Shown here: piece by piece, positions 42,570 to 46,798 of the stretch | Layout of the letters: each line of letters opens with the position of its first letter | Numbering within the stretch: position 1 is the stretch's first letter | Program-made: the position numbers and the translations under genes | Assembly (NCBI GenBank): GCA_000004985.1 | Contig: GG738872.1 | Source of the DNA: Naegleria gruberi | Lineage: Eukaryota | Length of the DNA stretch: 64,000 bases | Strand: one strand, 5' to 3' | Notes under the pieces: generated by a model | The model's database searches: none | What the model was told of the DNA's origin: nothing | What the model saw: the letters and a program-made list of their open reading frames with translations, nothing else

Positions 42570-45500
42570 TTAGATATTTTGAAGTGTTTGGAAGTATTTT
42601 ACATAGGATTGGTCAATTGGTGGACATTTGGTTGAGATGGATTGAGAATTGGAATTGTCATATTTGGGAGTTGGTGGGAATGAAGATTTAATGTAAGGAA
42701 GAAGTGGATAAATTGAAATTCTATCATTAATTGAATCAATCCATTCAGAATAATTCATTTTCCTCAAGTTTTCATTGAGAGATTCTTCCAAATATTGAAT
42801 GAATAATTTGAATGGAATTGGATTTGAATTATTGACAATATGATAAATTTGATGAGGTATTTCAGAGTGAGATATTTCAATAATTGATTTGCAGATATAA
42901 TCCACTGGAACTAAACTCACATTCTCATTGGTGGCTGGGTAGGATTTGAGTTGATGAATGGATTGAATGAACTTGGTAAACCAGTCGTTTGGATTAGCAA
43001 TACCTGATGAGGACCAACTAGAAAGACCTAATCTGTATATCTTGAACTTTTTAAATCCAAACTTTTCCTTGCAATTTTGTAATAATTTTTCAGCAACCCA
43101 TTTGGTTTGAGAGTAACCATCTGAGGATTTTACTCCACTTTGTAAAAACGTTTCTCCAATTGAGTCTTTTTCGTAGAGAGTTGGATTTTGTGATAAATTA
43201 TCTCCATAAACACTAATTGTAGAGGCATGATGTAAAAATACAGAGTGTTTGGCCGTGGAAATAAACTTCAAAAGTATTTTCATAGAATTAACATTTGAGC
43301 CCTTTAGAATTGAATAGCTTTGAGAAAATTCAACTCTAGCAGCAATATGATAAATTGATGTTACACTATTCAGTAATGTTTCATAACTATTTGAATCCAA
43401 TCCAAAGTTTTCTTTTGAAACGTCACCAGCCAATACAGTTATTTTGTTGGAATCAAATAAGAGTTTGTAAGTTTCAAATACTTTGGTTAGTCTATCAGTT
43501 GCCTCATTGTCAGATTCTGCTCTGACCAAACAAATTAATTTAGAGAATTTTCCTTGTTTGGCTAACTCTGCAACGAGATGACTTCCAACAAAACCTGTTC
43601 CACCAGTAATGAGGGCAATATGTTCCTTATCATTGGTTTCCTTCTTATCAGAGAATATCAAAGGTTCAGTGAAACGTAAATCCTCTTCAACTTCCTCCAA
43701 TAGTCCTTTCTGTTGTTGAGATATTAGATGATTGACAATTTTCTTTCCAGATCCGAGTGAAATCAGATTGCATACAGAGGACAATGGTTCGTGAATTAAC
43801 AAATTAATTGGAATATTCTCTGTAATTGAAAATACTCGCTGAATAGAAAAGAGTAATCGAACAGCTTTCTTTTCATTGTTAATGAATATTGATATCGCTT
43901 CAACTTACAATTGATGTTCCTCCCATTTCTGTAAAACTTTTGCTCATATCTAACTCTGTTACTTCCAGAATATTTTTGCACATGTTTACAAAATTTGTCT
44001 CAATATTCGCATCTGCGTAATCAGTGAGATCTGATGAGAAATCTGCATAGGCATTTTCTATGTTTTGAGTATGTTTCTTATAAATATTGAATCTGGAAAC
44101 TTTTCCACTAGGTGTTAGCATATTATTTTCAATAGTCCAATCGTCTGTGTCTATAATGATCTCCCTTGGAATTTCAAAATGTCTGAGTCCATGAATTTTT
44201 CCTAAATTCCTCATAGATTTCAAGATTTGTTTTGATTCCACATCTTGAGAAACTGTACGCACAATTGCAATGATATAATCTCTGCTACTGTCTCCATAAA
44301 TACAACAATTCTCGATGAGATCAATTTGTTCAAATAGACCTTCTAGCTGTGAAGGACTAACAAATTCAGAAATAGCCAACTTGAAAATGTTCTTTCTTCT
44401 GTCAATTATCTTGATTGAATTATTGGATGGATCTAATACCACTATGTCTCCAGTTTTATAATATCCATCAGAGGTGAAATTTTCATTAGATTCTTGTTCA
44501 TTCTTATAGTATCCTTGAATAGTATAACTTGTCTATTCATTTGTTATAAAAATCAATTAGAAAATAATTGTTACAAACCTTAACTGCTAATTCACCTCTT
44601 GGAAGAGGTAAATCAGTGCTGAAGAAATTCATTTCAGGAACATCAAGAAGTTTAAATTGAACATCTGAATGAATTATACCATTGGTTGCTATACCTCCAC
44701 ATTCAGAACAGCCAAATCCCTCAACTATTTAAATTTGAATAATAAAACTACATAAGTTCTACTTACTAGTCGCTAATCCAAGAGTGTCTTTCAAAAAGTT
44801 CATTAATTCTGTTGAAACATGGGCACCACCAATTCCAATAAGTGAAATTCTTTTTCCAAAAAGTCTTCTATACTTTTGAACAATTTCACTGTGAGGAATA
44901 TTTGACGATTTCAAATCCATCAAATATTCGTTATATAGCGAGTTAACTATGGAAGGAGCCAATACTAGTCCAGTAGGATTAACAATTGGCAAATCCTCAA
45001 ATAAATTGACTCCCCTTCTACAATATGCTAATCTACCTCCTCTCATAAGAGTTCCATAAACAAGCACTCTGTCAGCCCCAAGAGATTGTGGACTAAATGA
45101 AGCCTCAACTACCAATCTGTCATGAGAAATTTGCTTCTTGATATCAATAATCCAATGATTGTTCTCAATAATGCATCCTTTAGCTTTTGAAGTTGATCCA
45201 GAAGTGAATATAAGAGCACCACACTTTGAATCTGTGTTCATGTAGAGAAGTTCACTATTGGAATCATCTGATTTCTTGTTGATAACTTGTCCATTACCTG
45301 CAACAGCATATTTGGGAGAGTCCTCTTCAACAACAATTGGAGTATCATATCTAATTCCCATGAGTGTTTGAGCTTGTGAGTTTGATTTGTGCATTTCCTT
45401 TCCCTTCTTGATTAAGGACTCCAAAGTAATAATGTTTACATTAGATCCATTTTCTTTCACACTTGTTGAGTCCATAGAAACAAGAGTGAATTGTGTTCCC

Positions 45501-46798
45501 TTCTTTTCAAGTAAAACGTCTAAAAACTTTCTAATGAGTATTCCCTCACAAACAATTACTTGCATACCAGAAGTATCAATAATTGAGTTCAATTCTGGAG
45601 TGGATCTAGAAGGTTGAAGCCCAACTGTGGTAAATCCATTCCATGAACACATCAAATCAACAAGGGTATATTCAAATCTATTCTCATTTGTTGAAATACC
45701 AATCATTACTTCATTCTGATTTCCTGATAATAACCCTGAAAATCCAAGTGAACAATAGAACAATTCCTCCCTAACATCAGAGTAGGTTCTATACTTGAAT
45801 GTGTTTCCATGTCTAACTCCAACACAAGGTCTGTCATTATAGGTTCTAAACATGTTATTGACAAAAGTGTGAAGATTAGGAGAATTCAAAATATTCAATT
45901 TCATGAATACTACATCATTGTTCTCCAATATATATGGATAACCAAAGAAAGGATCCAATATTTTGATCTTTTCGTATAAATCTCTGTCATTTTCTTCTAA
46001 TTTGATTGTGTCAGTATTAATATCAAACTCTATTTGCTTTTTGAAACAAACTTGTTCAATTGTTTTCATCCAACCATAACAATGTTCACACTTGACAGAA
46101 TTCTTATCATTTGAAGAGATGCACCGATATCTAGGATTTCCCTCTCCAAGACCACCTGATTGAATGACCCAATCGCAAACTCCACATCGATCCTCCCATA
46201 AATTATCTCCAAATCGATCAGTAATTTTCCCAGAGTTGAATTCAACAGTACCTCCTCCGTTTCCCGAATCAAATGAACTACTATAAGTAACTTGCCATGG
46301 TAAATTAATATTCGCACTCTTCAATTCATTCGATAATTCATCCAATTCTCTAACAAACTTTTCATTCAATTTTGCAGATTCAATCATTTTCGGATTTTCC
46401 TCCAAATCATTGATCTTTCCCTGATTTTCAATAATAATAGTCTTGAACTCTCTCAATTCCCTCAAAAACTCATCAATATTCAAACAAGAACTATTATCAT
46501 CATTTTGATCATCATTTTGTAATTTCTTATTAATTTGTTCAATCTTTTCCATTCTCAATTTTACAAACTCTTCCTGAACAATCTTAAAATCAGCCCTCAA
46601 TTTCTCACTCTCCACCACATAGGTCCTTCTCACTAAATTACCCAACCGCAACAATTCAACAATTCTCTCAAAATAATTTTCACTCCTCTCCGGATTTAAA
46701 GATTTTAAATTCTCACAGTCGGCATAACAAGACTTTAAAAAGGGAAATTCTAATAGGATAGCAGTGTCATGATTTTTGATTTCAAGTTCTTGAGACAT
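42570..46798 (-). CDS. NRPS-like adenylation / peptidyl-carrier / thioester-reductase (A-T-R) enzyme, about 1349 aa, four exons: about 44767..46798, 44579..44724, 43909..44532 and 42570..43817. Carboxylic-acid-reductase or Lys2-like architecture with an about 340-aa N-terminal extension.
   Basis: Adenylation domain: A3 is LIFTSGSTSKAKGCII, A5 is EGFGCSECGG (after intron 1), A7 is YKTGDIV, and A10 is PSGKVSR. Carrier motif FTEMGGTSI is split by intron 3. Reductase domain has ITGGTGFVGSHL and YSQTKWVAE (YxxxK). Introns are 42-91 nt, GTAAGT or GTTTGT. ORFs 44759..46798, 43900..44442 and 42570..43802 are the exons. Confidence 0.75.

Follow-up and report, generated by a model that had tools for sequence, protein, structure and literature searches.

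The window analysed here, a stretch of 64,000 nucleotides of Naegleria gruberi DNA, carries on its minus strand the gene NAEGRDRAFT_68436, which runs from an ATG at position 46798 to a TAA stop codon at 42572-42570 (window coordinates; Table 1). Splicing yields a coding sequence of 4101 nt and a protein of 1366 aa that matches the public N. gruberi model (XP_002676473.1 / EFC43729.1 / D2VHT2) at every residue, where it is annotated as an uncharacterised "predicted protein". An earlier note on this DNA had correctly given the location and the four exons, and had put the protein at 1349 aa, which is too short. None of the three exon junctions introduces a gap against the N. lovaniensis orthologue: the junction at intron 1 (...LGLATIEGFGCSECGG) aligns gap-free, and those at intron 2 (ELAVK/TSYTIQGYY) and intron 3 (GGTSI/KAVRLLFS) are kept. 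Orthologues were found in N. lovaniensis, in a second Naegleria-like sequence and in Willaertia, and the neighbouring genes are ordinary eukaryotic ones, including those for filamin, Josephin and PIG-H proteins. Together with the three spliceosomal introns, they bear out the view that the gene is native and not contamination. We consider that this native N. gruberi gene probably encodes a multidomain enzyme of the carboxylic acid reductase (CAR) type.

Table 1. Features of NAEGRDRAFT_68436 in the window
Feature	Position	Strand	Details and basis
Whole gene NAEGRDRAFT_68436	42570..46798	-	4 exons, 1366 codons + stop; splicing by hand and by script; identity to public model
Exon 1	46798-44767	-	splicing
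Exon 2	44724-44579	-	splicing
Exon 3	44532-43909	-	splicing
Exon 4	43868-42570	-	splicing
Intron 1	44725..44766	-	42 nt, GTAAGT..AG, phase 1
Intron 2	44533..44578	-	46 nt, GTTTGT..AG, phase 0
Intron 3	43869..43908	-	40 nt, GTAAGT..AG, phase 0; directly 3' of the carrier GGTSI motif
N-terminal helical region, possibly coiled coil	46304..46798	-	residues 1-165; AF2 helices, conservation
PWQ / beta / ZZ-type zinc-finger-like module	46013..46303	-	residues 166-262
ANL adenylation domain	44026..45901	-	residues ~300-895; spans introns 1 and 2; Pfam, alignment to CAR 5mso, motif tables
Carrier (PCP/T) domain	43746..44025	-	residues ~896-975; intron 3 inside; PP-binding, 18.0 bits
Thioester reductase (SDR) domain	42666..43640	-	residues 1011-1335; NAD_binding_4, TIGR01746

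From its N-terminus the protein comprises a helical region, a ZZ-type zinc-finger-like module, an ANL adenylation (A) domain of the ACSL/CAR branch, a carrier (T) domain and an SDR thioester reductase (R) domain. The A-carrier-R architecture had previously been read from the letters, and Pfam and NCBIfam domains as well as alignment to PDB entries agree with it. Of the four profiles that the earlier note expected on the spliced protein, two were recovered outright, namely Pfam AMP-binding (residues 320-735, 88.8 bits) and NAD_binding_4 (PF07993; residues 1021-1263, 174.8 bits against a cutoff of 20.1), and the other two fell just under their cutoffs: PP-binding (PF00550; residues 910-950) scored 18.0 bits against 20.8, and the thioester reductase profile TIGR01746 scored 209.2 against 213.35. 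AMP-binding_C_3 reached 20.0 bits over residues 780-891 (cutoff 20.8). In the carrier domain, the GGTS933 region aligns with the FTDLGGDSLSA segment of the CAR carrier domain, its putative phosphopantetheine serine, S933, being encoded at window positions 43912-43914; the carrier segment used as a phmmer query retrieved the carrier domains of Sorangium A-T-R proteins, and three proteins that share the N-terminal module (P0013, P0015 and P0108) score above the PP-binding cutoff. The A domain carries motifs A3 (TSGSTSKAKG, 532-541, slightly off consensus), A4 (SPQSL, with Leu573 at the position of the CAR histidine), A5 (GFGCSECGG, 680-688), A7 (YKTGD, 751-755), A8 (DRRKNIFKLAISE782F) and A10 (PSGK870, with the lysine present). 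The R domain shows TGGTGFVG (1022-1029) and GY1186SQTK1190WVAE, and aligns with the R domains of CARs, MxaA and polyketide synthases.

The best NCBIfam match of the whole protein was NF041592, the carboxylic acid reductase family, with 382.3 bits in two stretches over residues 504-1322, which does not reach the equivalog cutoff of 1300 bits. The best PDB matches were the bacterial CAR entries 5mso, 5msc and 5msp (E 3e-83 to 5e-73), in a single alignment that begins at A3 and runs through the whole R domain; one of the three was deposited under the name thioester reductase domain-containing protein. Next in relatedness come FadD9/CAR-like proteins and the long-chain acyl-CoA synthetases of eukaryotes (ACSL/Faa2-type). 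These matches support the comparison with CARs, as had been proposed, rather than with amino-acid-activating modules. The earlier opinion that this architecture is rare in protists was too strong, since CAR-like A-T-R proteins also occur in Acrasis, Arcella and Tieghemostelium, in a second N. fowleri paralogue and in EukProt transcriptomes.

The catalytic motifs are intact apart from the PxxH histidine of A4. Among the residues defined by mutagenesis of the Neurospora crassa enzyme NcCAR (PMC5826065), Glu782, Ser933, Tyr1186, Lys1190 and the TGxxGxxG motif are all present. The hinge motif L(F)S(A)xGEK(F), which holds the glutamate, reads LAISE782F in the N. gruberi protein, with Ser for Gly before the Glu. 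The PxxH histidine (H237 in NcCAR, H300 in NiCAR) is essential in the CARs tested, the alanine mutant of NcCAR being inactive (PMC5826065), and in an ungapped, well-flanked alignment to CARs its position is taken by Leu573. For this reason we call the enzyme CAR-like and not a proven CAR; the substitution suggests that its adenylation chemistry or its substrate may differ from those of CARs.

The A domain is preceded by an N-terminal extension of ~290-320 aa. The earlier note had put it at ~340 aa, somewhat too long, and it was right that the extension is real and exact in the cysteine string that it quoted (residues 205-243). AF2 predicted helices at residues 2-15, 19-34, 42-98, 108-134 and 139-161, with pLDDT values of 55-76; in this run, on three Naegleria sequences only, pLDDT was ~25-35 over the cysteine cluster. 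The heptad coiled coil that had been claimed here received weak support, in that residues 1-161 are indeed predicted to be helical and the heptad periodicity is marginal: one 28-residue window (~106-133) stands out, with a score matched by 4.4% of shuffles, and the mean heptad contrast is no different from that of shuffled sequences. A coiled coil is thus no more than plausible.

Downstream of the helices, of the two cross-braced zinc sites of a ZZ finger (Cys4 and Cys2His2), the first would be complete, with four predicted ligands (C205, C208, C237 and C240), and the second is degenerate, C226 being its sole remaining ligand. In its predicted fold the finger module is of the ZZ type. Across the family of proteins with this module, G197, C205 and R223 are invariant and zinc ligands are lost in sets; eight homologues have all six cysteines plus a downstream HxxH pair, which reads PHxxH in six of them. 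The Pfam ZZ model (PF00569, cutoff 21.4 bits) did not match the Naegleria copy, and neither it nor the other finger models passed threshold on any family member, the best ZZ score being 20.8 bits, for P0131; other members gave weak ZZ, ZZ_ADA2 or B-box matches. The profile labelled A4, compared with the PDB, hit mostly ZZ domains at E ~0.1, and Foldseek returned no significant match in the PDB. An SH3-like N-terminus considered for the N. fowleri paralogue was not confirmed by Pfam.

The extension nearly matches the catalytic core in conservation, with 51-52% identity between Naegleria species as against 56% for the core, and its helical region is kept in Naegleria and Willaertia and can be aligned in ~30 homologues. 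It had been called unusual, but it is not peculiar to this gene: the module occurs in at least 30 other proteins, from several protist lineages and Acidobacteriota. An exhaustive profile search gave 39 matches, and in nearly all those long enough to judge the module is followed by an ACSL/CAR-like A domain, P0121 being the exception; a word-indexed homologue search with a 34-sequence alignment of the module gave one fragment. Modules joined to such A domains come from Heterolobosea, a kinetoplastid, Anaeramoeba, many metagenomic proteins and two Acidobacteriota genomes, and many of these proteins (in Papus and Anaeramoeba, for example) are A-only and annotated as ACSL. Across a broad but patchy range of protists, the module and the A domain have probably been passed on as a single unit. 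The statement that no characterised A-T-R enzyme has such an extension has held up, as we found none among characterised enzymes, in Pfam families or in papers; likewise, nothing relevant came from literature searches on the gene itself, on CARs or thioester reductases in Naegleria, or on ZZ domains combined with acyl-CoA synthetases.

We infer the following function and substrate for the enzyme. A phosphopantetheinyl transferase would prime Ser933; at the expense of ATP, the A domain would convert an aliphatic carboxylic acid, probably a fatty acid, to its adenylate and load it as a thioester onto the carrier arm; the arm would swing to the R domain, where NADPH, with Tyr1186 and Lys1190, would reduce the thioester and release an aldehyde, or an alcohol if a second reduction follows. 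The N-terminal module would take no part in the chemistry. We propose that, like ZZ fingers elsewhere, it would serve for protein interaction, tethering or oligomerisation, holding the enzyme on a partner or at a cellular site. A bolder version, which we regard as improbable, is that enzymes with the helical and ZZ module make up an ancient class of fatty-acid activators that has gone unrecognised, some ACSL-like and some with a reductase, in which the finger binds a free protein N-terminus, so that acyl-adenylate, acyl-thioester or aldehyde is made on, or handed directly to, a specific protein or complex. The ZZ fingers of p62, KCMF1, PRT1 and p300 do recognise the free N-terminus of a protein. 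If this were true, the enzyme could be a dedicated assembly line for protein lipidation or ether lipids and not a soluble metabolic enzyme, and the strict replacement of the histidine in A4 whenever carrier and reductase domains accompany the module would be part of the specialisation.

Several other explanations of the locus were weighed. The architecture had been likened to that of Lys2, and an alpha-aminoadipate reductase of lysine biosynthesis would indeed have the same A-T-R order and would account for the match to TIGR03443 (161.2 bits, E 2e-47). The analogy fails on the extent of that match, which spans residues 863-1327, that is, the carrier and R domains only, with a cutoff of 1030.1 bits, and on the A domain, which groups with CAR/FadD9 and the ACSLs and not with amino-acid-activating domains; we regard a Lys2-type enzyme as highly improbable. 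We give equally little credence to a gene of its own for the N-terminal region, and to bacterial contamination or very recent acquisition of the gene. The annotation of Willaertia magna does show two genes 2.1 kb apart, ABK040_002366 for the module and ABK040_002363 for the A-T-R part, and yet these are colinear and on one strand, with the homology breaking and resuming at the same residue; the full-length protein recurs in N. lovaniensis, and in N. gruberi itself the extension and the first half of the A domain (380 residues) lie in one uninterrupted exon-1 reading frame of 679 codons. A foreign origin could be argued from full-length homologues, present in the genomes of two Acidobacteriota and on a contig of bacterial type, against which stand the spliceosomal introns and the filamin, Josephin and PIG-H neighbours.

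An explanation that deserves more weight, although we still think it unlikely, is that the A-T-R chemistry is unlike that of classical CARs, with another substrate or an inefficient A domain and an R domain that perhaps carries out a four-electron reduction to an alcohol, for example a fatty alcohol for ether lipids or plasmalogens, with the myxobacterial multidomain reductases as a parallel. In its favour, all nine A-T-R proteins with the N-terminal module have Leu or Trp at the position of the A4 histidine, which is kept in the seven A-only proteins with the module (7/7), in ACSLs and in CARs. Related R domains among the PDB matches, moreover, include those of MxaA (4u7w) and a mycobacterial peptide synthetase (4dqv), both of which make alcohols. 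Orthologues of the plasmalogen desaturase PEDS1 have been reported from Naegleria, slime moulds and kinetoplastids, and plasmalogens from myxobacteria (PMC11225845), a similarly patchy set of taxa, but its overlap with the organisms considered here is loose.

Carboxylic acid reductases are valued as biocatalysts, and to our knowledge the characterised ones are all bacterial or fungal. The Naegleria gene belongs to a distinct, intron-bearing eukaryotic CAR-like branch that also includes orthologues from the pathogen-related N. fowleri/lovaniensis lineage; this branch departs from CARs at a residue thought essential and carries a conserved N-terminal zinc-finger module undescribed in Pfam and in the literature searched. 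The same module marks a wider ACSL-like family across several protist supergroups and two Acidobacteriota, and so raises testable questions: what places fatty-acid activation at a site in these cells or links it to partners, and how genes may have passed between protists and bacteria.

With bacterial type I CARs (EC 1.2.1.30; 5msc/5msd, 5mso, 5msp; mycobacterial FadD9) the Naegleria protein has in common the A-T-R order, motifs A5, A7, A8 and A10, the GGxS serine, TGxxGxxG and GYxxxKxxxE. It differs in its extra N-terminal module of ~300 aa and in Leu573 for the PxxH histidine; identity is ~25%, and over the first 200 residues of the A domain the divergence is too great for an alignment. It also lies outside the bacterial CAR/FadD9 clade in a neighbour-joining tree (computed with numpy), in which the clade with the N-terminal module has 53% support. 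Since the deep nodes of this tree are weakly supported, we claim no direction of gene transfer. The fungal NcCAR (PMC5826065) is alike in domain logic, and four of its five essential residues (Glu, Ser, Tyr and Lys) are kept in Naegleria, whereas the PxxH histidine, His237, is the one that is missing; an N-terminal ZZ module is absent from fungal CARs. The eukaryotic ACSL/Faa2/LACS enzymes, on whose branch the Naegleria A domain lies (23-31% identity in local alignments covering 27-55% of the query), lack the carrier and reductase domains, release acyl-CoA and retain the A4 histidine. Lys2 shares the domain order and a related R domain, but its A domain is unrelated at the family level. Compared with the ZZ fingers of p62/SQSTM1, CBP/p300, Ada2, HERC2, KCMF1, BIG, PRT1 and Nbr1, none of which, or any other ZZ domain, was found fused to an adenylating enzyme in the literature searched, the N-terminal module has a loop of ~10 residues (IQxGAxGxG) inserted after the first CxxC, and its His pair sits 20-35 residues downstream; in the Naegleria protein the second zinc site is gone. 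The Naegleria enzyme does not represent a new kind of system.

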